A stretch of DNA of 64,000 nt, from NCBI RefSeq assembly GCF_963676475.2, contig NZ_CAXXQZ010000001.1, positions 875,245-939,244 on the forward strand, given 5' to 3'. The notes below the pieces were generated by a model that searched no databases, was not told the origin of the DNA, and worked only from the letters and a program-made list of their open reading frames with translations. How positions within the stretch are numbered: the stretch's first letter is position 1; every line of letters starts with the position of its first letter. Below are positions 41,060-49,529 of the stretch, one piece after another. The DNA is from an uncultured Celeribacter sp. GTDB lineage: Bacteria; Pseudomonadota; Alphaproteobacteria; Rhodobacterales; Rhodobacteraceae. Position numbers and translations under genes: made by a program.

Positions 41060-41087
41060 ATTGTACATAATACCAATTATCGGATAT
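41060..41087 (-). other. dif: dif-like XerCD site (attL of the prophage; probable functional chromosomal dif)
   Basis: Minus strand reads ATATCCGATAA-TTGGTA-TTATGTACAAT (11-6-11). The right arm resembles the E. coli XerD arm TTATGTTAAAT, and the site lies at the KOPS polarity switch. Confidence 0.8.
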
Positions 41088-41128
41088 TCCCTAATTACGC
41101 CTTTTCATGATTGCTGCGATTGGCAACC

Positions 41129-41157
41129 AAATAACCAACAATCTTATTAAGGGTCAA
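41129..41157 (-). promoter_or_regulatory. Candidate outward-facing phage promoter at the left end
   Basis: Minus strand TTGACC followed after 17-18 bp by TTATTTG; overlapped by one half of a 10-bp inverted repeat. Confidence 0.3.
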
Positions 41158-41258
41158 GCCTCCTTCAGGTCATTCCTGGCCGGCTCAGAAAACTTAATAA
41201 GAAAAAGCGCCGCCCGATCACCTCGAACGACGCTTTCACATGCCAGCCTAAGCCTCTG

Positions 41259-41468
41259 TTATTGCTCAATTTCAACGGGCGCACGACCCTCCGTGCCGCC
41301 ATAGGCCGAAAGACCGATCCCGGCCACGGCAATCAGAGCCTCGCGCCAGAGATCAATGGTTTCCGCGCCAACTTCGATACCTTGCGAAGCCAGCCACGTT
41401 GCAAGCGCGGTCATGAATGCGCCGATGATCGCGGCCAAGACTTTGCGTGTAAGAAACGCCGTAAGCAT
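41259..41468 (-). CDS. Phage small two-TM protein, holin-like
   Basis: 69 aa, two hydrophobic segments, last gene of the lysis end. Confidence 0.6.
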   Translation of the reverse strand: MLTAFLTRKVLAAIIGAFMTALATWLASQGIEVGAETIDLWREALIAVAGIGLSAYGGTEGRAPVEIEQ

Positions 41469-41483
41469 ATGATTTTCCCCCTT

Positions 41484-41618
41484 TTAAGCGTTTTCGAGTT
41501 TACCAAGGCGCGCCGAAAAATCGTCGTGCGCCTTGGTGAGACCGCCGAGGCGGTAAAAGATCGCGGCCAAGACCGTGAATTGCCCGATGTCGAGGGCGGC
41601 GGCGAGATCGAACGTCAC
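41484..41618 (-). CDS. Phage small single-TM protein (holin/lysis accessory), GTG start
   Basis: VTFDLAAALDIGQFTVLAAIFYRLGGLTKAHDDFSARLGKLENA; GTGA overlap with the upstream stop. Confidence 0.55.
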   Translation of the reverse strand: MTFDLAAALDIGQFTVLAAIFYRLGGLTKAHDDFSARLGKLENA

Positions 41619-41794
41619 TTGATCGCCCCCGCCGATTTGAGCGCCTGATAGGAGATGTATACGCCGCCCGCGACGGTTGCCCATTTGAGCGCTTTAGCGG
41701 TGCTGTCCATTGCCTCGCCGCCCTCTTTCGCGGCCCATCCGACACCAAAAACTCCGAGAATTGCCAAGCCAACGCCAACAACAGGAAATGCCAT
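41615..41794 (-). CDS. Phage small two-TM membrane protein
   Basis: MAFPVVGVGLAILGVFGVGWAAK...WATVAGGVYISYQALK; starts 2 nt after the lysozyme stop. Confidence 0.6.
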   Translation of the reverse strand: MAFPVVGVGLAILGVFGVGWAAKEGGEAMDSTAKALKWATVAGGVYISYQALKSAGAIK

Positions 41795-41795
41795 A

Positions 41796-42536
41796 TCAAA
41801 TCCCCCGAATTGCATTGATGATCGAACCGACGCCGACCAGAGCTTTATTGAGACCGTCACCGGCATAATAGGAGCTTCCCGCGCTCGAACCTGTCACCAC
41901 CGGAAGCGATGCCCACTCCCGCGCCAGATTGTTTGCGAACTGCGTCTCAGTGATCCGTCCAGACTGGTAATCGGACAGCCCGCGCCGCTCCATCAGGGCC
42001 ACGGCAAGACGGTCCTGAAGCTCAGGCGTGAACAGGTCGCTTTTGCGTGCATAACCGGCGTTCACAAGGTCATTGAGCGTCTTGCGAAGGAACTGATACC
42101 GGCCCGCCGCACTGGATGCGGACCCGGCGGCAATGCTTTGTCTCTGCCAGTCCAGCACCTCGCCCACGGTCATTTGCGTGAGCGGCTTCGGTGTCGCGAT
42201 CTTGGAGCCGCCATAGACCTGATTATAGCCTTGCGGAGCCTCTACCCCGCCAATGAGCCCCAGAAGACCTGATAGGCCGCTTGAACTCATTTGCGGCGAA
42301 CCATAGGACGTACTCGGAGCGGTGCTGCCAGAGCTTTGACCGCCTTTCCCAAACAGGCCTGAGAGCGCATCGACAATCCCGAGTGCGGCGGTGATTTTCG
42401 CCGCCGTGTTGTCCGGTTTCGGTTGCTCAACATAGACGACCTTCTGGGAATGCTCAGAGGATGCGCCGCGCTTGGAAAAGGCCCAGAACGCAACGCCCGT
42501 GATCCCCGCAAGAATGACTGCACCAAACTCAGACAT
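41796..42536 (-). CDS. Membrane-anchored lambda-lysozyme-like muramidase/lytic transglycosylase
   Basis: N-terminal TM, Ser/Gly linker, then E-x4-YN...SAAGRYQF...EWASLP lambda-R-type motifs; real start MSEFG at 42536. Confidence 0.8.
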   Translation of the reverse strand: MSEFGAVILAGITGVAFWAFSKRGASSEHSQKVVYVEQPKPDNTAAKITAALGIVDALSGLFGKGGQSSGSTAPSTSYGSPQMSSSGLSGLLGLIGGVEAPQGYNQVYGGSKIATPKPLTQMTVGEVLDWQRQSIAAGSASSAAGRYQFLRKTLNDLVNAGYARKSDLFTPELQDRLAVALMERRGLSDYQSGRITETQFANNLAREWASLPVVTGSSAGSSYYAGDGLNKALVGVGSIINAIRGI

Positions 42537-43155
42537 GGACCACCTCGTCCGCAAATGCCAGCGCGGTAGGCTCTTCCGAATTTGCGTAGACCGCTGCGCC
42601 GCCCAGAATTTCCACAGTTTGGCCCGGTTGAGCCACAACCGTTGCGTATTTCGAGACCCGTGCGCCCGTGGTCGCATAGAAATAGATCGCGCTGGTTTCA
42701 GAGGCGTTTCGGAAAATCGCCTTTTGGCGCATATCATCAATCGGCATGACCTGCTCCACCGTCGAAGAAATAAAGGCCATGTTGTTGATGTATTCGATAC
42801 CGTCAGCCCCAGAGATAACGCCGCCGATGTCGAAGGGACGCATTTGCAGCTTTTCGCGGGTCTCGATTGCTCCCAGAGCTGCAAACCGACCATCACGGAC
42901 GCCGCCACGACCAAAACCAAGCGTCACGATTATCGTTTCGTCAGTCGGGTTGATTATGCGGACGCTATCGAAATCGGCCTCTGAGGTGTATGTGAGGCCC
43001 TTCTGGAACCCGGTTTCCGGGGCCTCCCCGATCTGCACCTTGAAAGGCTTCGTGGCCTCAAGGCAGGACAGAAAATCAGAGCGGCGCGGGACGTTGTGCG
43101 ACTGACCCGGCGCCAGTGTCCAGGTGCTTTCTTGGTAGAACGGTTTTTTGGTCAT
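42529..43155 (-). CDS. Putative penton/spike protein (PM2 P1-like position, beta-rich)
   Basis: All-beta pattern; QVMPIDDMRQKAIFRN and QPGQTVEI resemble recalled PM2 P1 domain II segments; syntenic slot. Confidence 0.55.
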   Translation of the reverse strand: MTKKPFYQESTWTLAPGQSHNVPRRSDFLSCLEATKPFKVQIGEAPETGFQKGLTYTSEADFDSVRIINPTDETIIVTLGFGRGGVRDGRFAALGAIETREKLQMRPFDIGGVISGADGIEYINNMAFISSTVEQVMPIDDMRQKAIFRNASETSAIYFYATTGARVSKYATVVAQPGQTVEILGGAAVYANSEEPTALAFADEVVHV

Positions 43156-43943
43156 TTGAGTACCTGTGCAATGAGAATGAGAGCTATGGCCGGGACGCCG
43201 ATCCGAATGAGCTGCGTGGATAGCTGGGTGCTGTCCTCTTGGCTTTTTTCAAGGGTGGATGCGAAGGCCCCTGAGAGCTGGTCAAGAGACTGCCCTGCGA
43301 ATTTATAGGCGTCCTCTCGCGCCCCCTCTGCAAAGGACAGAGCGTCACCTGTTGCCCCCACCACCTCGTCCAGCGATGTTTGGGCAAAATTGAATGCGTC
43401 ATTGCCAAATCCGACCACGTCAGAAAGCGCACGCTCCCCAAAGTTCAGGCTTTCGGAAAGGGCCTCTTGCGAAAGGTCGATCCCCTGCCCGGCCAAATCC
43501 ACACTGTCCGCAAATCGGTCATTCGATAGGCGCACCGCATCAGAGGCGAAATCGAAGGCCTCGCGCTGCGCATCATTGACCAAGTCATAAGCGCCACTTT
43601 GAGCGTCACCGGCGAAATCGAAGGCTTCGCGCTGCGATCCGTCCGCAAAATCCAGCGCGTCTGAAACTGCACCGCCTGCCACATCAAGACCTTGCTGCCC
43701 GAGATCATAACCGCCATAGGCAACTTCGTCGGCCAGCGAAAAGGCACTGTCTGCGGCCTCATTGATCGCGTCAGCAAAAGCCTCGCCCAGAGATACGGCC
43801 TCACCGCTCGTTTGGTTAATCACCACATCACCACCGGCGCGCGTAACGACAGAGCCAGCATCCGCCGCGACCCGTTCGTCATAGGTGTTGTAGTTGGTTT
43901 GCGTTGTGTTCGTGCTGCGAGAGCTACCGCCGAAAAGACCCAT
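43152..43943 (-). CDS. Membrane/DNA-delivery protein with 11/22-residue repeats (PM2 P10-like position)
   Basis: N-terminal MGLFGG and Ser/Thr run, DAQREAFDFA repeats, C-terminal TM. Confidence 0.6.
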   Translation of the reverse strand: MGLFGGSSRSTNTTQTNYNTYDERVAADAGSVVTRAGGDVVINQTSGEAVSLGEAFADAINEAADSAFSLADEVAYGGYDLGQQGLDVAGGAVSDALDFADGSQREAFDFAGDAQSGAYDLVNDAQREAFDFASDAVRLSNDRFADSVDLAGQGIDLSQEALSESLNFGERALSDVVGFGNDAFNFAQTSLDEVVGATGDALSFAEGAREDAYKFAGQSLDQLSGAFASTLEKSQEDSTQLSTQLIRIGVPAIALILIAQVLK

Positions 43944-43970
43944 ATTAACGCCCGTTTTTGGTTATGAAGT

Positions 43971-43992
43971 GACGCCCGCATTTGCGGGCGTC
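43971..43992. repeat. Perfect intergenic inverted repeat in the structural operon
   Basis: GACGCCCGCA-tt-TGCGGGCGTC. Confidence 0.85.
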
Positions 43993-43996
43993 CCGA

Positions 43997-44185
43997 TCAC
44001 TTTTTGACGATGAACCAGATTGCGACCGCCGCGACGATCACAGGCGCAAGCGTCTGGAGCCACCCCACCGAACCGGACGACCCTTTAAAGGCAAAATCGC
44101 CGGTCGCAGCGGCCCCGCCGCCAGAGGTTGCCATGCCGTCCGCCGAGGCGTGGCCACCGGACAGGCTTAGGTTTGGGAGTGTCAT
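43997..44185 (-). CDS. Small Gly/Ser-rich membrane protein (PM2 P8-like)
   Basis: 62 aa after AGGAG RBS; Gly-rich, ends LAPVIVAAVAIWFIVKK. Confidence 0.65.
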   Translation of the reverse strand: MTLPNLSLSGGHASADGMATSGGGAAATGDFAFKGSSGSVGWLQTLAPVIVAAVAIWFIVKK

Positions 44186-44250
44186 TCCGCTATCTCCTGT
44201 CGTTTGAGCTGCGGTCGTGGTCGGTGGCCTTCGCGGCGAGGTTGGCGCAA

Positions 44251-44673
44251 TCACTTCTTGGCAATGAAGTAGACAGCGCCAACGGCAAGAGCGCCCATCA
44301 GGATCAGAGACGGAGAAATCCCCCCGCTCTCGCCCTGCGTCTGATAGGCAACCGGCGTCACCTGCCCGTCCCCCGTGCTGCCCATGTACCCGAGAACCGC
44401 CGTGGCAACGTTCGTCAGGCCCGACAATGTCGAGGACGTACCGTCGACCGACGGGGCGGGAACAACGGTGCTGCCCGATCCGCCGATGTTGTCCGGCCCC
44501 ATGTTCTGGATCGGCGTTCCCATCGACAGACTTGCCATGAAGCTGTCCATATCTTGCGTCCACCCCCAAACAGGGTCCGTTTTCGGGATGTTCGATCCAT
44601 AGGAGAGCTGCGCGCCGGTGCTGTACGGATTACCGACAGTCGGCGCGCCCCCTCCTCCGAAAGAAAGTGCCAT
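44251..44673 (-). CDS. Virion membrane protein (PM2 P3-like)
   Basis: Directly follows the MCP; low complexity, C-terminal TM plus KK. Confidence 0.65.
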   Translation of the reverse strand: MALSFGGGGAPTVGNPYSTGAQLSYGSNIPKTDPVWGWTQDMDSFMASLSMGTPIQNMGPDNIGGSGSTVVPAPSVDGTSSTLSGLTNVATAVLGYMGSTGDGQVTPVAYQTQGESGGISPSLILMGALAVGAVYFIAKK

Positions 44674-44688
44674 ATTGAGACCTCCGTT

Positions 44689-45504
44689 TTAGGTTGACGT
44701 CGCCGGGCTGCGCATCGAGACCGAATAGATTTTGAAGTTCGTACCGGGCGCGGTGAAATCGAGTTTCACGCGGAAGTCGCGGAGGGTCATGGGCAGAACC
44801 TCGCCAAGGCGATTTTCGCTCATGAAGTCGATATGCGTGAAGCCGATCTGCGGAGCGCGGCCAGCAACGGACAGGTGCGCATTGCGGAGAACTTCGTCGC
44901 TTTCATGCACCTTCACGTTGTTGGTCAGCACCTCGACCTTGTCGATGTCATCCGATGTCACATGCAGGCCGAGAAGGTTGAAAGCGCCTTTGGGCAGGTC
45001 TGCAATTTCCTTGGTCCCCGCAAGGCCCATCTGGTCGGAGAAGCGCTGAATGCGCAAATGACCCGCGAAAGCGCGCGGCTCGGATTGCACCGCATAAACG
45101 GACAGCTCATTGACGGTAATGCCGTTTTTCAGGTCCATTTCAAGCGTCATGGTCGCGACGCCGGAGCCGGTGCCGTAAGCCGTGTTGTCCTCGCCCGCCA
45201 AGGTCCGCGCCCACGGCTGGGACAGGAATAACGGAAGAACGCCAGCGGACATTTCTTGTCCGTAATAAAGATTAAGAGAAACGAGGTCAGCCGCGTCAAT
45301 CTCGATCTTGGTTTCACCGTTCACCATCAGGCGAATCTCGCCGATATAGGCGCCCCAGTTGGCAACCTCAACATCACGCGGCGTCACGTTCACATTCATG
45401 CGGACATTGAGCCGGTGATAGGTCGGACCGATGGGCAGGTTTACGATTGCGGTTTGACCCGCGCCGATGCCCTGCGGGGTCGGCATTTTTTCGATACGGC
45501 GCAT
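44689..45504 (-). CDS. Double-jelly-roll major capsid protein (PM2 P2-like)
   Basis: 271 aa; LPIGPTY, KEIADLP, IDFMSE and DFRVKLD match recalled PM2 P2 motifs (LPIGQTY, TEIADLP, IDFMLE, DLRLKID). Confidence 0.88.
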   Translation of the reverse strand: MRRIEKMPTPQGIGAGQTAIVNLPIGPTYHRLNVRMNVNVTPRDVEVANWGAYIGEIRLMVNGETKIEIDAADLVSLNLYYGQEMSAGVLPLFLSQPWARTLAGEDNTAYGTGSGVATMTLEMDLKNGITVNELSVYAVQSEPRAFAGHLRIQRFSDQMGLAGTKEIADLPKGAFNLLGLHVTSDDIDKVEVLTNNVKVHESDEVLRNAHLSVAGRAPQIGFTHIDFMSENRLGEVLPMTLRDFRVKLDFTAPGTNFKIYSVSMRSPATST

Positions 45505-45529
45505 TTTTTGCTCCTGTGTTGGTGTCGGA

Positions 45530-45652
45530 TCAGCCGAAGCCGCGTTTGGCGTCGGAAACGATGCCGATGTCTTCGAATTGGTTCATCAGAAAGCCAGCGG
45601 CGACAACGCCAGCCATGACCAGCGCCACAAGTTTGAGGTCGGTTTTTTTCAT
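45530..45652 (-). CDS. Small single-TM protein (PM2 P7-like position)
   Basis: MKKTDLKLVALVMAGVVAAGFLMNQFEDIGIVSDAKRGFG, immediately before the MCP. Confidence 0.65.
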   Translation of the reverse strand: MKKTDLKLVALVMAGVVAAGFLMNQFEDIGIVSDAKRGFG

Positions 45653-45768
45653 GCGTAAAAGCCCGTTTGTTGAGGTTGCGGGGCGGTCTCCGCGCGGCGC
45701 GTAATGTACCAAACGGCCAGCCCGGAAAGGACTGACGCGGCCACGGTCAAAGCGAATGTTTTGGACAA
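45649..45768 (-). CDS. Small single-TM protein, TTG start (absent from the ORF track)
   Basis: MSKTFALTVAASVLSGLAVWYITRRAETAPQPQQTGFYA; AGGGG RBS; ATGA overlap with the next gene. Confidence 0.6.
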   Translation of the reverse strand: MSKTFALTVAASVLSGLAVWYITRRAETAPQPQQTGFYA

Positions 45769-45775
45769 GAGAAAA

Positions 45776-45851
45776 CCCCTGTTTTCGGTTGAGAACAGGG
45801 GAAGCATGACGGGGTTTCTGCGGGCGCTCGACTTAACGTAGCGAACGCCCG
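45776..45851. promoter_or_regulatory. Two stem-loops between the ATPase and structural genes
   Basis: CCCCTGTTTTC/GAGAACAGGGG (covers the RBS) and CGGGCGCTCG/CGAACGCCCG. Confidence 0.5.
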
Positions 45852-45884
45852 TAGCGTAGCGTTATGAATTGCGCTTTTTGTCGA

Positions 45885-46601
45885 TTAGGCGCGTTTTTTC
45901 CGTTTCGGCGCGGAATTGTCGTTTGCCGCCGGTGGCAAGTTGGTGTTTGCCGGTTTCGGTTTTGCAGCGCTCCGGCCAAAGGTGATCTTGCCGCGTTCGA
46001 TCTTGCCCGCCTTCTCGTGCAGGTAGTGCAGATTTTCCGCCGGAAGATCGGAGACCCGGACGCCCAATTCCGCCGCCGCCGCCTGTTTGTCGCGCGGCCC
46101 CTTTTGGCGAAACACCACAGTTTCGGTGCAGTTGCCACGGAACCGCGTGTCAACCTCTGCGAGCCGCTGAGAGACGCCCACGACCTCAATCCCGAAGTGG
46201 CGACCACGGGAACAGATTTCCGCAAAGCCGGGGCATTTCTGCGCGCCCCCGGCGACCGGGAAAGCCATGTTCATTTCTTCGACCACAAGCGTGAGCTGGT
46301 CGCCCTGCCCCGTGTCCTTAAAAGGCTGTTGCGCCATCATCAGGAGCTTGCAGAGCGCGGAGAGGCTTTTCGTCTCCGCACCCGGTCGCGGGACGTAAGA
46401 AACCCGGAACTTGTTCCAGCTCTTGCGCATCCCGATGCGCACCCCGTCGAGATCGCGCACAGATTGCCCGCCGTACTCGTCCAGCGGGTCGAAGATCACG
46501 ACGCGGCGTTTCGGCTTAACGTAGCGCTTTGTAAAGGCGGATTTGCCGGACCCGGACGCCCCCCAGACGCCCAAGCGGCCCGCGTTGCTCGAAGCGCTCA
46601 T
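45885..46601 (-). CDS. FtsK-HerA/A32-like genome packaging ATPase (PM2 P9-like)
   Basis: GASGSGKS Walker A, LVVEE Walker B, SRGRHFG arginine finger, VSQR sensor. Confidence 0.9.
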   Translation of the reverse strand: MSASSNAGRLGVWGASGSGKSAFTKRYVKPKRRVVIFDPLDEYGGQSVRDLDGVRIGMRKSWNKFRVSYVPRPGAETKSLSALCKLLMMAQQPFKDTGQGDQLTLVVEEMNMAFPVAGGAQKCPGFAEICSRGRHFGIEVVGVSQRLAEVDTRFRGNCTETVVFRQKGPRDKQAAAAELGVRVSDLPAENLHYLHEKAGKIERGKITFGRSAAKPKPANTNLPPAANDNSAPKRKKRA

Positions 46602-47164
46602 GCCGCTTCCTCGTCCGCATTCATGGGCGGCGCATCGACGTTTGCGGCCTCCGGCGTTCGGCTGCTCTTGAAGCTGCCCTCTGGTGCCTCGACCGTCGCG
46701 GCCTTCGCCTTCCGCCGCTCGATCAGAATGGCCCGCACAGCGCCGGTTTGCATGATCAGGAAAGGCGTCATTCGCATGATCGCCGCAAAGGTGTCATTGC
46801 TCGCCAACAGGATTGACGGGAAGTACATTTCACAGAGATTATAAGCGGCGTCTGCCGCATCCGCGAAAGGCTCTTCCTTCTCGTCGGTGATCGCAAGCGG
46901 TTTGAAGTCAGGAAGCATCATCCCCGGCATGTTGAACGACAGGCGGAAGACAGCGGCGAAGGCTTCGCGGCTCATGCGCTCCGGCTCAATCTGACCGGCC
47001 AGCGGCTCCCCGTCCTCCCCAATCTGGATAGGATCATCGTCCGCGAAGGTCTCCCCGTCGATGTCGGGCGCGCGGAAGCTGTCGAGGTGCGCGCCCGGAT
47101 CGGAGCTGGTCACGGCCTCCGGTGCGTTCATATCGTCAAAATTCAGATCAGTATCCGTAGTCAT
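46598..47164 (-). CDS. Phage protein with acidic N-terminus, coupled to the ATPase
   Basis: 188 aa, D/E-rich first 60 residues; ATGA overlap with the ATPase. Confidence 0.65.
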   Translation of the reverse strand: MTTDTDLNFDDMNAPEAVTSSDPGAHLDSFRAPDIDGETFADDDPIQIGEDGEPLAGQIEPERMSREAFAAVFRLSFNMPGMMLPDFKPLAITDEKEEPFADAADAAYNLCEMYFPSILLASNDTFAAIMRMTPFLIMQTGAVRAILIERRKAKAATVEAPEGSFKSSRTPEAANVDAPPMNADEEAA

Positions 47165-47540
47165 TGAGCGTGTCCCCCGCTTTACGTTTCGTTACGGGTG
47201 CGCGGTCGTCGTTCGCGGTCTCCGGCTTATTAACGGGCGTATCGCTACGCGGTGCGGCGCTTGGCGCGGCGTTGGTGTTCGCGGCCACCATGGGCGCGGG
47301 TGCGATGCCTTCGCGGCGGTGATAATCGGCCCGTATCGCCTCCGATTTCACCGCGCCCCAGCGGACGCCAAAACCGCAGCTCTGGCCCTGCGCGTCGAAG
47401 TTTCCGCAGTTGTAATATGCTTTGCCGGAGACGTTGATTTTGACCTGAACACGCCCCCCACAACAGGCGCACTTGTCGATCCGAACAACGGTCCCTTGTG
47501 GCAAAGGAAACGGACGCGGGCGGCGTTGTTTGTCGCTCAT
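47148..47540 (-). CDS. Zinc-ribbon protein, putative late transcription activator
   Basis: CxxC...YYNC-x9-CGF; start MSDKQ at 47540. Confidence 0.65.
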   Translation of the reverse strand: MSDKQRRPRPFPLPQGTVVRIDKCACCGGRVQVKINVSGKAYYNCGNFDAQGQSCGFGVRWGAVKSEAIRADYHRREGIAPAPMVAANTNAAPSAAPRSDTPVNKPETANDDRAPVTKRKAGDTLNDYGY

Positions 47541-47776
47541 GATGCACCCCCAACGCGTAGCGAAGCGCGGTTTGCTTCCCACGCCTCCAAAACCTGTTCT
47601 TGGTGCGCCTCAACCTCTTCGGGCGTCATGATGCGGACGCCGAAAAGGTCTTGGCCGGGATAGGCGGCGCGGAACCGGGCGCGGGCGTCCTTCGGGCTGT
47701 TGGCCGCGATCATGTGGGACCGTGCGCCCAGCTCACCGACAAGGGCCGAGACGCGATAGCGGGTTTTCGTGGTCAT
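47537..47776 (-). CDS. Phage hypothetical protein
   Basis: 79 aa, overlapping start/stop with both neighbours. Confidence 0.6.
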   Translation of the reverse strand: MTTKTRYRVSALVGELGARSHMIAANSPKDARARFRAAYPGQDLFGVRIMTPEEVEAHQEQVLEAWEANRASLRVGGAS

Positions 47777-47952
47777 TGCGCCACCTCCCCGGCCATGGCG
47801 TCGATCCGCGCGGCCATTTTCTCCATCACGTCCAGCGTGTCCGTCACGAGGTCGATCACCTCGCCCGGTTTTGTGGCGAGCATCATGGGGGATTTCTTCG
47901 CCAGATCGGCGGCGCGGTCGCGCAGCATCCGCGTTTCGTCTTTGAGTTGCAT
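47773..47952 (-). CDS. Phage hypothetical helical protein
   Basis: MQLKDETRMLRDRAADL...; RBS GAAGGG; translationally coupled. Confidence 0.6.
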   Translation of the reverse strand: MQLKDETRMLRDRAADLAKKSPMMLATKPGEVIDLVTDTLDVMEKMAARIDAMAGEVAQ

Positions 47953-48419
47953 TTCGGGTGACCCTTCGTGGTTAACGTGCAGGGAAGGTAACCAGATACC
48001 ACCACACGCCAACCCAAAAAAAACAAAAAACGCCTCAGGGGCCGTTTACAGGCGCTCTAAGGCGTTTTGGGTGCCGTGGTCACAAAAAGGCCCTATCGCC
48101 TCCCCTGCCCCCGCTGTGCGTCCAGTTTGCGGCCATTCTGTTCTTCCCCCGTACCTCCCCCGTTCCATCAGCCGGAACAAACGGCGGCAATTCTGGGGCG
48201 AAATTTTCAACCCTTCCCCAATTCATGGCGGGCCGAAGGCCCTCAATATCCCGGCCTCTCTCCCGCATGGCGCTCACCCGTACCGGCCCTCTCAACCCGC
48301 ACCCAACGCTGCGCCATGCCTTCCGCCGTCCCTCTCCACCCCGCACTTTATCAACTTGTTCCCCGACTAGGGGAACGCCTCATATCGTTGGTTCCTTTGG
48401 GAACCATGGAGGGGGGGGT

Positions 48420-48484
48420 AAATATTCACCCCCTTTTGGGGGAAATTTTCACCCCCTTTATCACTAAATTTTCACCCCCTTTAT
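48420..48484. repeat. Three iteron-like direct repeats with exact 23-bp phasing
   Basis: AAA(T/A)TTTCACCCCCTTT at 48420, 48443 and 48466 (the last two identical over 19 bp); degenerate copy at 48201. Confidence 0.85.
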
Positions 48485-48500
48485 TAATCCTGACAGAAAG

Positions 48501-48509
48501 TTATCCACA
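48501..48509 (+). promoter_or_regulatory. DnaA box next to the iterons
   Basis: Perfect TTATCCACA. Confidence 0.75.
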
Positions 48510-48515
48510 GGCACG

Positions 48516-48538
48516 AAAAAGCCCGCCGGGTGGCGGGC
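48516..48538 (-). terminator. Intrinsic terminator of the rep operon
   Basis: GCCCGCC-gggt-GGCGGGC followed by T5 on the minus strand. Confidence 0.75.
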
Positions 48539-48566
48539 CTATCTCTGTCGGCTGGTCTCGATGTCC

Positions 48567-49058
48567 CTAAAACGTTTCTGGGTTTTCAGGGTCGCCCATG
48601 ATCTCTAGGGCCTTAGACGGCCCGTATTTGCCGCGCAGGAAGCGCCATGTTGCTTCCCTGTCCCGGTTGGTCTCCATGACCTCCATTTGATCGTCTGACG
48701 GTGATTTTTCCTTGCCGGGGACGGTCAAAAGCCATGTGGTCGGCACCTTGCGCCCGCCCTGCCAGTTTTTCATGGGCTTTAGGCTTCCTTCATTGCGCAG
48801 AAAGCGGACGGACGTTCTAACCGTGTCATAGCAACACCCGGCGTCAGCCATGAGTTGTTCTTTTGTGATCGTGACGACCGGCCTATGAAAATCTGCCTTA
48901 TTCCACATGGCCTCTAAAACAAGTCTCTGCGCCAACTTGGCTTTGGTGTTCAAAAAGGCGGCTTTTCTGGTCCGGCGGGTAGCGGCGCAAGCTGATCTGT
49001 ATTCGGCCTCATTTGCGAATCCTGCGCGCTGCCATTTTGGGGCTCTTTTTGTCGTCAT
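48567..49058 (-). CDS. Winged-helix protein, putative replication initiator
   Basis: ITKEQLMADAGCCYDTVRTSVRFLRNEGSL HTH plus wing (GGRKVPTTW); directly adjacent to the iterons and DnaA box. Confidence 0.6.
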   Translation of the reverse strand: MTTKRAPKWQRAGFANEAEYRSACAATRRTRKAAFLNTKAKLAQRLVLEAMWNKADFHRPVVTITKEQLMADAGCCYDTVRTSVRFLRNEGSLKPMKNWQGGRKVPTTWLLTVPGKEKSPSDDQMEVMETNRDREATWRFLRGKYGPSKALEIMGDPENPETF

Positions 49059-49282
49059 CTCTTCGCCCCAGCACTGCGAAGCATTGCCGCTACATCATCG
49101 ACCATAAACATCAGCGGAAGATTGCCGATTGTCCCGGCCTCTTTCATGGCTTTGATCTGCAAGGAAATGGCCGCTTCGGTGCGCTTTAGTGCCCTAGCAA
49201 TGGTCGCATTCTTAATTCCACGCGCATATCCGATGCGGATGCAGTCTTTTTCAAATTCAGTTATTAACCTGCCCCGTGCCAA
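49055..49282 (-). CDS. Small HTH regulator (TTG start)
   Basis: KNATIARALKRTEAAISLQIKAM HTH; GAAAGG RBS; ATGA coupling to rep. Confidence 0.7.
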   Translation of the reverse strand: MARGRLITEFEKDCIRIGYARGIKNATIARALKRTEAAISLQIKAMKEAGTIGNLPLMFMVDDVAAMLRSAGAKR

Positions 49283-49445
49283 TTCTTGACTGCCTTTCTG
49301 TATTGGCGTTAATATGGGAACAGGCCTCTAACGAGGTGATGCATCCTTGGTCGGGTGTGTCGGCTGGCCTCCAGTTTATCGGCTCCTGCCGTTTGGCAAC
49401 TGGACTGCCAGCCCATAACCCCCAGCCCTACATATCGTATCTACG

Positions 49446-49473
49446 TTTTACCGTAGTACCAATTATAAGATAA
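49446..49473 (-). other. Degenerate dif-like site (attR)
   Basis: Minus strand reads TTATCTTATAA-TTGGTA-CTACGGTAAAA: same 6-bp core as attL, related XerC arm, degenerate XerD arm. Confidence 0.75.
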
Positions 49474-49529
49474 TAGACACAATGCTGAGCTCAATACCAA
49501 ACCCATGCAACCCATGCAAAACCCAACGC

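Follow-up and report, generated by a model that had tools for sequence, protein, structure and literature searches.

The window, i.e., the whole stretch of 64,000 nt from an uncultured Celeribacter sp. that was analysed, contains a prophage bracketed by two dif-like sites, attL and attR. The following features are located at this locus:

41060-41070, minus strand: XerD arm of attL, host-derived and canonical (TTATGTACAAT), with an inner TTATGT that is shared without variation by 30 genomes of the genus, each with a single dif
41071-41076, minus strand: central region of attL (TTGGTA), the same as that of attR
41077-41087, minus strand: XerC arm of attL, phage-derived (ATATCCGATAA), which together with 41060-41076 rebuilds a canonical dif
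41088-49445, minus strand: integrase-less double-jelly-roll (DJR; Vinavirales) prophage of 8.36 kb with a major capsid protein (MCP) carrying P2_N and P2_C, a packaging ATPase and a lytic transglycosylase
44689-45504, minus strand: MCP of the PM2 P2 type (PF18628, 1e-20; PF25513, 2e-18)
45885-46601, minus strand: P9-like packaging ATPase (phrog_2666, 3e-25)
48415-48483, no strand assigned: three 23-nt iterons (repeat family D2), a probable origin
48567-49058, minus strand: predicted winged-helix replication initiator of 163 aa, homologue of the YY gp19 "replicase"
49055-49282, minus strand: helix-turn-helix (HTH) protein of 75 aa, Jorvik Gp1/YY gp20 family, by position the best candidate for a Xer helper
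49286-49315, plus strand: sigma-70-like promoter TTGACT-18-TAATAT pointing to attR, TTGAC being conserved in relatives
49322-49415, plus strand: conserved RNA with three hairpins, running antisense to the leader of the operon of HTH gene and replicase gene
49446-49456, minus strand: XerD arm of attR, phage-derived and non-canonical (CTACGGTAAAA)
49457-49462, minus strand: central region of attR (TTGGTA)
49463-49473, minus strand: XerC arm of attR, host-derived (TTATCTTATAA)

The 8,358 bases of the prophage comprise approximately 17 ORFs, all of which are intact and co-oriented on the minus strand; besides the capsid protein and the ATPase, the lytic transglycosylase and small membrane proteins are encoded. 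When 19 prophage ORFs were scanned with Pfam and PHROG, neither a tyrosine nor a serine recombinase domain was found. Due to the DJR capsid protein, the P9-like ATPase and the missing integrase, the element is assigned to the tailless Vinavirales prophages and not to the filamentous phages. A 144-aa zinc-ribbon protein (47148-47582, minus strand), which is conserved in all relatives, yielded a sub-threshold match to a recombinase zinc beta-ribbon (E 5e-4); probably this is a PM2 P13-like transcription factor and not a recombinase.

On the plus strand, positions 49446-49473 read TTTTACCGTAG-TACCAA-TTATAAGATAA, corresponding to the XerD arm (as reverse complement), the central region and the XerC arm (as reverse complement), and the minus-strand attR is TTATCTTATAA-TTGGTA-CTACGGTAAAA. 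The partner site attL at 41060-41087 is ATTGTACATAA-TACCAA-TTATCGGATAT on the plus strand and ATATCCGATAA-TTGGTA-TTATGTACAAT on the minus strand. The central 6 bp of both sites are identical and their XerC arms agree at 8 out of 11 positions, in line with the initial annotation, which had called the XerC arms well conserved. The same annotation had described the arm at 49446-49456 as degenerate, and its count was confirmed: the reverse complement, CTACGGTAAAA, matches the E. coli-type XerD consensus TTATGTTAAAT at 7 out of 11 positions. Compared to the XerD arm of the host itself, TTATGTACAAT, 5 out of 11 positions agree.

This arm is supplied by the phage, as had been proposed beforehand. The circular genome of phage YY carries TTACGGCAAAA at the homologous attP position, within a stretch of 88% DNA identity. 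The complete attP of YY (positions 148-175 of L010) reads TTATCCTATAA-TTGGTA-TTACGGCAAAA, with an XerD arm identical to the attR arm of the window at 9 out of 11 positions. Furthermore, contigs L019 and L034 contain junctions of late end, attP and early end of related elements in the same layout. From the circular attP of YY and these junctions it follows that attR is composed of the host XerC arm and the phage XerD arm, and attL of the phage XerC arm and the host XerD arm.

The prophage is inserted in the chromosomal dif at the terminus. On contig C1, the peak of the cumulative GC skew is found at 890-916 kb; attL, located at 916,304, lies at the cumulative GC-skew maximum of the chromosome. 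The pattern ATAA-TNNGTA-TTATGT occurs at exactly one site in 30 out of 33 genomes of the genus and is absent from the reversed control; in the window genome the single match is attL, not attR. Since both sites bracket a PM2-type prophage, attL is situated at the skew maximum and the single dif of the genus type is attL, the att sites are not due to chance. All 30 genomes have the same inner XerD hexamer, TTATGT, in their dif, and CTACGG, which takes its place in the phage arm, is thus outside the natural variation. The host genome encodes an XerD-like and an XerC-like recombinase (316 and 237 bits, both under the strict equivalog cut-off) as well as an FtsK with a gamma domain. [quoted passage not shown]

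A second contig, C2 (815 kb), has a monotone GC skew, and joining it to C1 would make the replichores about equal. Due to this skew and balance, C1 and C2 probably belong to a single chromosome of 3.9 Mb, and C2 is probably not a second replicon. Across the genus genomes (G001-G048), the dif central region is TTGGTA in 13 cases, TCAGTA in nine, TCTGTA in four and TCGGTA in two, with three singletons; these are seven variants of TNNGTA that differ at the second and third bases. The attP sites of the phages show the same central-region variants as their hosts, and the 6-bp central region may be the subject of an arms race and a determinant of host range.

Several motifs overlap the phage arm. 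It is located within an inverted repeat, CTACG-N6-CGTAG (49441-49456), which is also present in YY; in case of other family members, different short inverted or direct repeats begin in the outer arm. Such repeats could represent an operator, a weak terminator or chance. A promoter-like motif on the plus strand, TTTACC-16-GATAAT (49447-49474), spans attR and is directed into the host flank; it matches at 9 out of 12 positions and may be a chance occurrence. A minus-strand promoter formed by the central region and the arm (TTGGTA-17-TACGAT) was rejected, with only 8 out of 12 matching positions and conservation in the window/YY pair alone.

For an overview of the family, 12 related attP or attR sites were compared, among them those of the window, phage YY, the Rhodobacter phage Jorvik and four metagenomic or run contigs; some of them are close relatives of one another, and due to the rarity of related elements (3 out of 400 sampled genomes of the order) all statistics rest on these 12 sites. 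The XerD arm is non-canonical in each of them, matching the consensus at 4-7 out of 11 positions. The Jorvik arm TTTAGGGGGAG is among the poorest (4/11), and the L018 arm reaches 4/11 as well. As had been noted for the window, the inner TTATG is missing: TTATGT occurs in 30 out of 30 host dif sites and in 0 out of 12 phage arms. Six elements have two complete ends, and their phage XerD arms agree with the arm of the respective host at 4-6 out of 11 positions (mean 5.0); for the XerC arms of the same six elements and G147, 7-9 positions agree (mean 7.9). Phage and host central regions are identical (6/6) in all six elements for which attL and attR are complete; in the seventh, the distal site is cut at a contig end. 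Among the hosts the central regions differ (TTGGTA, TCTGTA, TCAGTA, and TAAGTA), and the free attP of YY carries TTGGTA, the central region of 13 dif sites in the genus of the window.

Considering the phage XerD arms position by position, T2 is present in 12, A3 in 11 and T6 in one out of 12. A T at position 1 or a G at position 5 is kept in every arm, which equals the minimal requirement reported for XafT-driven integration of TLCphi derivatives (PMC9226527). The outer six positions look unconstrained. An unselected, drifting arm would sometimes stay canonical, and the fact that no canonical arm was seen suggests selection against canonical arms. Judging from the aligned sites, XerD-arm degeneracy is a trait of the whole family.

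Jorvik and YY are assigned to the Jorvik-like Vinavirales; they are small phages with a circular dsDNA genome and an inner membrane and lack an integrase (PMC10589892). In common with the window element they have a dif-like attP, after which come a non-coding regulatory region, the HTH gene (Gp1/gp20) and the gene of a small replicase (Gp2/gp19). In contrast, the structural module differs, and the genes of the window element are all co-oriented. Jorvik was shown experimentally to form lysogens at a dif-like attB (PMC10589892); in the passages searched, attP and attB are described as dif-like motifs, and neither the XerD arm nor Xer activation is discussed (PMC10589892). The circular YY genome has a length of 8.8 kb and is annotated with Marinomonas as host, which the Jorvik authors regard as wrong (PMC10589892). 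The XerC arm and central region of the YY attP match the native dif of the Rhodobacterales genus of the window at 16 out of 17 positions (10/11 in the arm, 6/6 in the central region), which supports the suspicion that Marinomonas is not the real host.

The block of attP, RNA, HTH gene, replicase gene and iterons (window 48140-49474 compared to L010 7679-8828 and 1-165) is 75-88% identical to YY in DNA. The MCP scores approximately 30 bits against the MCPs of YY and Jorvik, compared to 110 bits, with 31% identity over the full length, against MCPs of the Vibrio autolykivirus type, and the packaging ATPase is 25% identical to that of YY. The capsid protein and ATPase of the window element did not cluster with those of Jorvik and YY. 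Due to the high identity of the block to YY and the barely related capsid gene, an exchange of the lysogeny-replication module between two structural lineages of the Vinavirales is concluded, and the window element is a mosaic.

Within this block, the product of ORF 48567-49058 shares 65% amino acid identity with YY gp19, which the Jorvik authors annotate as replicase (PMC10589892), and the gene adjoins the three iterons. The predicted structure (pLDDT 87.5) consists of a winged helix between long helices, and the Foldseek matches are for the most part phage proteins of the HTH_36/RepA type. A single BFVD match named "FtsK gamma domain" (rank 13, TM 0.35, rmsd 11) was judged to reflect generic winged-helix likeness and was rejected. 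In G041, a different winged-helix protein occupies the replicase slot. The protein is best read as a replication initiator.

The interval of 160 bases from the HTH gene to attR is 88% identical to YY, compared to 75% for coding DNA. It includes a block common to seven elements, which folds much better on the plus strand (-43.5 versus -26.3 kcal/mol) into three hairpins with 28 pairs; the sigma-70-like promoter at 49286-49315 is located directly upstream on the same strand. In the alignment, 96.9% of the cells are paired versus approximately 40% in slid controls, and nine pairs show compensatory changes; the invariant G-U pairs would be A-C on the opposite strand. A covariance model detected the copy in the window as the sole one in the genome and did not find the RNA in G041, G336, G147 or Jorvik. 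No Rfam family matches the conserved block, and IMG/VR scans returned no match for the HTH protein or the RNA core. The RNA is situated at the position of the non-coding region that is duplicated in the lytic mutant Jorvik2, and is hence probably a countertranscript to the HTH-replicase leader that controls replication or lysogeny.

As the initial annotation had pointed out, the arrangement resembles that of TLCphi of Vibrio cholerae: the double-stranded attP of this phage likewise combines a good XerC arm and a dif-identical central region with a poor XerD arm, and its integration, too, regenerates a functional dif on one side. In case of TLCphi, the XerD-first exchange is activated by the phage's own XafT, and the poor arm guards against FtsK-driven excision (PMC6744903, PMC9226527). 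In contrast to the window element, TLCphi belongs to the filamentous satellites, has a gammaproteobacterial host and encodes XafT, a protein with an HTH and a DUF3653 domain; the window phage and its host lack DUF3653. Tailless DJR phages that enter dif via XerCD and carry a lysogeny module beside attP, like the window element, are known from Vibrio as well, namely NO16 and fNo16 (PMC9966536, PMC12715192). In the dif-type DJR prophages of Vibrio, the XafT homologue P15 adjoins attP (PMC12715192). In fNo16, the XerD arm is also non-canonical and fNo16_0007, located approximately 240 nt from attP, matches DUF3653 at 2e-15. NO16 and fNo16 carry P15, whereas the alphaproteobacterial family is without such a gene.

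With respect to a known helper, the earlier statement that no DUF3653 domain is recognisable holds for the element, ten relatives and the host genome. The Pfam scan of the prophage ORFs did not detect the domain, and a six-frame search of the whole host genome gave no match at E<=1. A hidden Markov model built from 18 Vibrio P15/XafT-like proteins reached a best E of 1.8 against six-frame translations of the ten related elements, and recovered fNo16, the positive control, at 5e-74. DUF3653 proteins have been reported from gamma- and beta-proteobacteria (PMC6744903), and the search of the Rhodobacterales elements and of the host genome yielded none. Two attributes of the TLCphi type, the non-canonical XerD arm and the dif-identical central region, are present, and XafT with its DUF3653 domain is absent.

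No protein gene apart from the Gp1-like gene is always located directly beside attP; the latter has this position in all elements examined. Its distance to the XerD arm is 126-174 nt in ten aligned elements and approximately 160 nt in Jorvik. The same attP-adjacent position is taken by the genes of XafT and of XafV of VGJphi (10.64898/2026.06.12.731946), the latter being a structural homologue of XafT that acts on XerC-first reactions (10.64898/2026.06.12.731946). As a second attP-adjacent factor, XafV suggests that a self-supplied helper is a general feature of IMEXs. Considering that the attP/HTH/replicase block is transferred as a whole between viruses of different structure, a phage-encoded helper, if there is any, should be located in this block.

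The protein encoded by ORF 49055-49282 is 79% identical to YY gp20, and the family profile, which covers approximately 70 clusters at 50% identity, matches Jorvik Gp1 at 28 bits. A three-helix HTH with an additional C-terminal helix is predicted (pLDDT 77). The top Foldseek matches in PDB and BFVD are generic HTH folds of the LuxR/NarL/sigma-4 kind, all with E > 0.03, and neither an XafT-like fold nor FtsK-gamma occurs among the top 50 PDB or BFVD matches. In these comparisons no sequence or fold similarity of the Gp1-like protein to XafT, XafV or FtsK-gamma was found. Two specific assignments of this ORF were rejected, namely that of an FtsK-gamma mimic, as FtsK-gamma is absent from the top 50 Foldseek matches and from the PDB profile matches, and that of a remote DUF3653 homologue, for which hhalign gave 9.5% probability over 18 columns in the N-terminal HTH only. 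The initial proposal that one of the two HTH ORFs (48567-49058 or 49055-49282) may be a non-homologous Xer activation factor thus receives no support from the structures.

Genetic data on Jorvik link Gp1 to the lysis-lysogeny decision (PMC10589892). The mutant Jorvik2, with the exchange W56L in Gp1 and a duplication of the adjacent non-coding region, forms clear plaques and no stable lysogens (PMC10589892). This phenotype fits Gp1 as a regulator and is compatible with a role in integration as well, although the clear plaques point to a regulatory rather than an integration defect. A role as lysis-lysogeny regulator is independent and sufficient, which counts against a helper function, and that the Gp1-like protein in particular is the Xer helper is considered unlikely.

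In summary, 49446-49456 is the XerD-side arm of the attP of a Jorvik/YY-type tailless prophage, which would have entered the chromosomal dif via the XerC and XerD of its host. This attP has the anatomy of the TLCphi type: the XerC arm and the central region of 6 bp are tuned to the host dif, and the XerD arm is kept non-canonical in every family member. By integration, the XerD arm of the host and the XerC arm of the phage are joined to a canonical dif at attL, and attR remains as a poor site. By analogy to the work on TLCphi, the poor arm would block FtsK-activated XerCD recombination between attL and attR and the lysogen would be stable. Integration via the poor site would need help, most likely from a factor that is encoded by the phage, has no relation to DUF3653 and either activates Xer or stabilises the synapse, with the attP-adjacent Gp1-like HTH protein (49055-49282) as the best candidate by position. 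We regard the overall reading, i.e., a TLCphi-type attP with a stabilising poor arm and some phage-encoded helper, as moderately probable.

Integration could also be XerC-first and proceed without any phage factor as in CTXphi, with XerC exchanging one strand pair, replication resolving the Holliday junction and the XerD-side arm being left to drift. The good conservation of the XerC arms and the XerC-side junction between phage and host, the seemingly unconstrained outer six positions of the phage arm and the fact that no Xaf homologue was found are in agreement with such a route. However, elements of the XerC-first type typically keep homology on the XerC side only, whereas the central regions in this family fully match the host dif wherever both att sites are readable, and the phages track the host variants. 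CTXphi and VGJphi have near-canonical XerD arms, and integration of VGJphi is approximately 10,000-fold lower without its own XafV (10.64898/2026.06.12.731946). Drift alone also fails to explain the complete absence of TTATGT from the 12 arms together with the fixed positions 2-3, and a XerC-first integration of this kind is considered improbable.

A dependence on host factors only would require that the residual XerD contacts (T2, A3, and T1 or G5) together with cooperative XerC binding suffice for FtsK-activated integration, the arm being weakened just enough to slow excision. The host has the complete set of XerC, XerD and FtsK-gamma, the inner bases of the phage arm are partly conserved, and a degenerate XerD arm in the absence of XafT is known from the gonococcal genetic island (PMC6744903). 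Two points count against the reading with a phage-encoded helper: with positions 2-3 (TA) nearly invariant in the phage arms, XerD may still make some contact and FtsK might be enough, and the rules for the XerD arm were derived from V. cholerae and may not transfer to the Alphaproteobacteria. In V. cholerae, though, FtsK-driven integration worked only with arms very near to dif (PMC9226527), and the arms of Jorvik and L018 are far outside this range. Integration by host factors alone is rated as distinctly improbable. That the arm is merely the decayed, functionally meaningless relic of a defective prophage is a general possibility for any prophage end, with nothing specific in its favour, and is extremely improbable: all ORFs are intact, L019 and L034 contain circular or tandem junctions in which arms of this kind are found, and the viable phages YY and Jorvik have equally non-canonical arms, so that attP sequences of free phages contradict decay.

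Returning to the reading with a phage-encoded helper, it is tempting to speculate that Jorvik-type phages of the Alphaproteobacteria possess a third class of Xer-activating or synapse-stabilising factor that is unrelated to DUF3653. Most likely this would be the 75-aa Gp1-like protein, possibly together with the adjacent non-coding element, and XerCD would then recombine a site that XerD cannot bind alone. In this specific form the proposal is tentative and on balance rather unlikely.

Elements exploiting Xer spread toxins, resistance and defence genes, and only in Vibrio phages is it known how they escape from the FtsK checkpoint, namely by means of XafT and XafV. The present elements constitute an alphaproteobacterial family of tailless phages that combines a poor XerD arm of the TLC type with none of the known helpers. 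Since Jorvik grows on Rhodobacter capsulatus, a new helper class and a helper-free route can be distinguished directly by experiment. The variability of the central region within the genus and its tracking by the phages suggest that these few bases would be a simple determinant of host range. If the proposed third class is real, it would be the first such Xer factor outside the beta- and gamma-proteobacteria.
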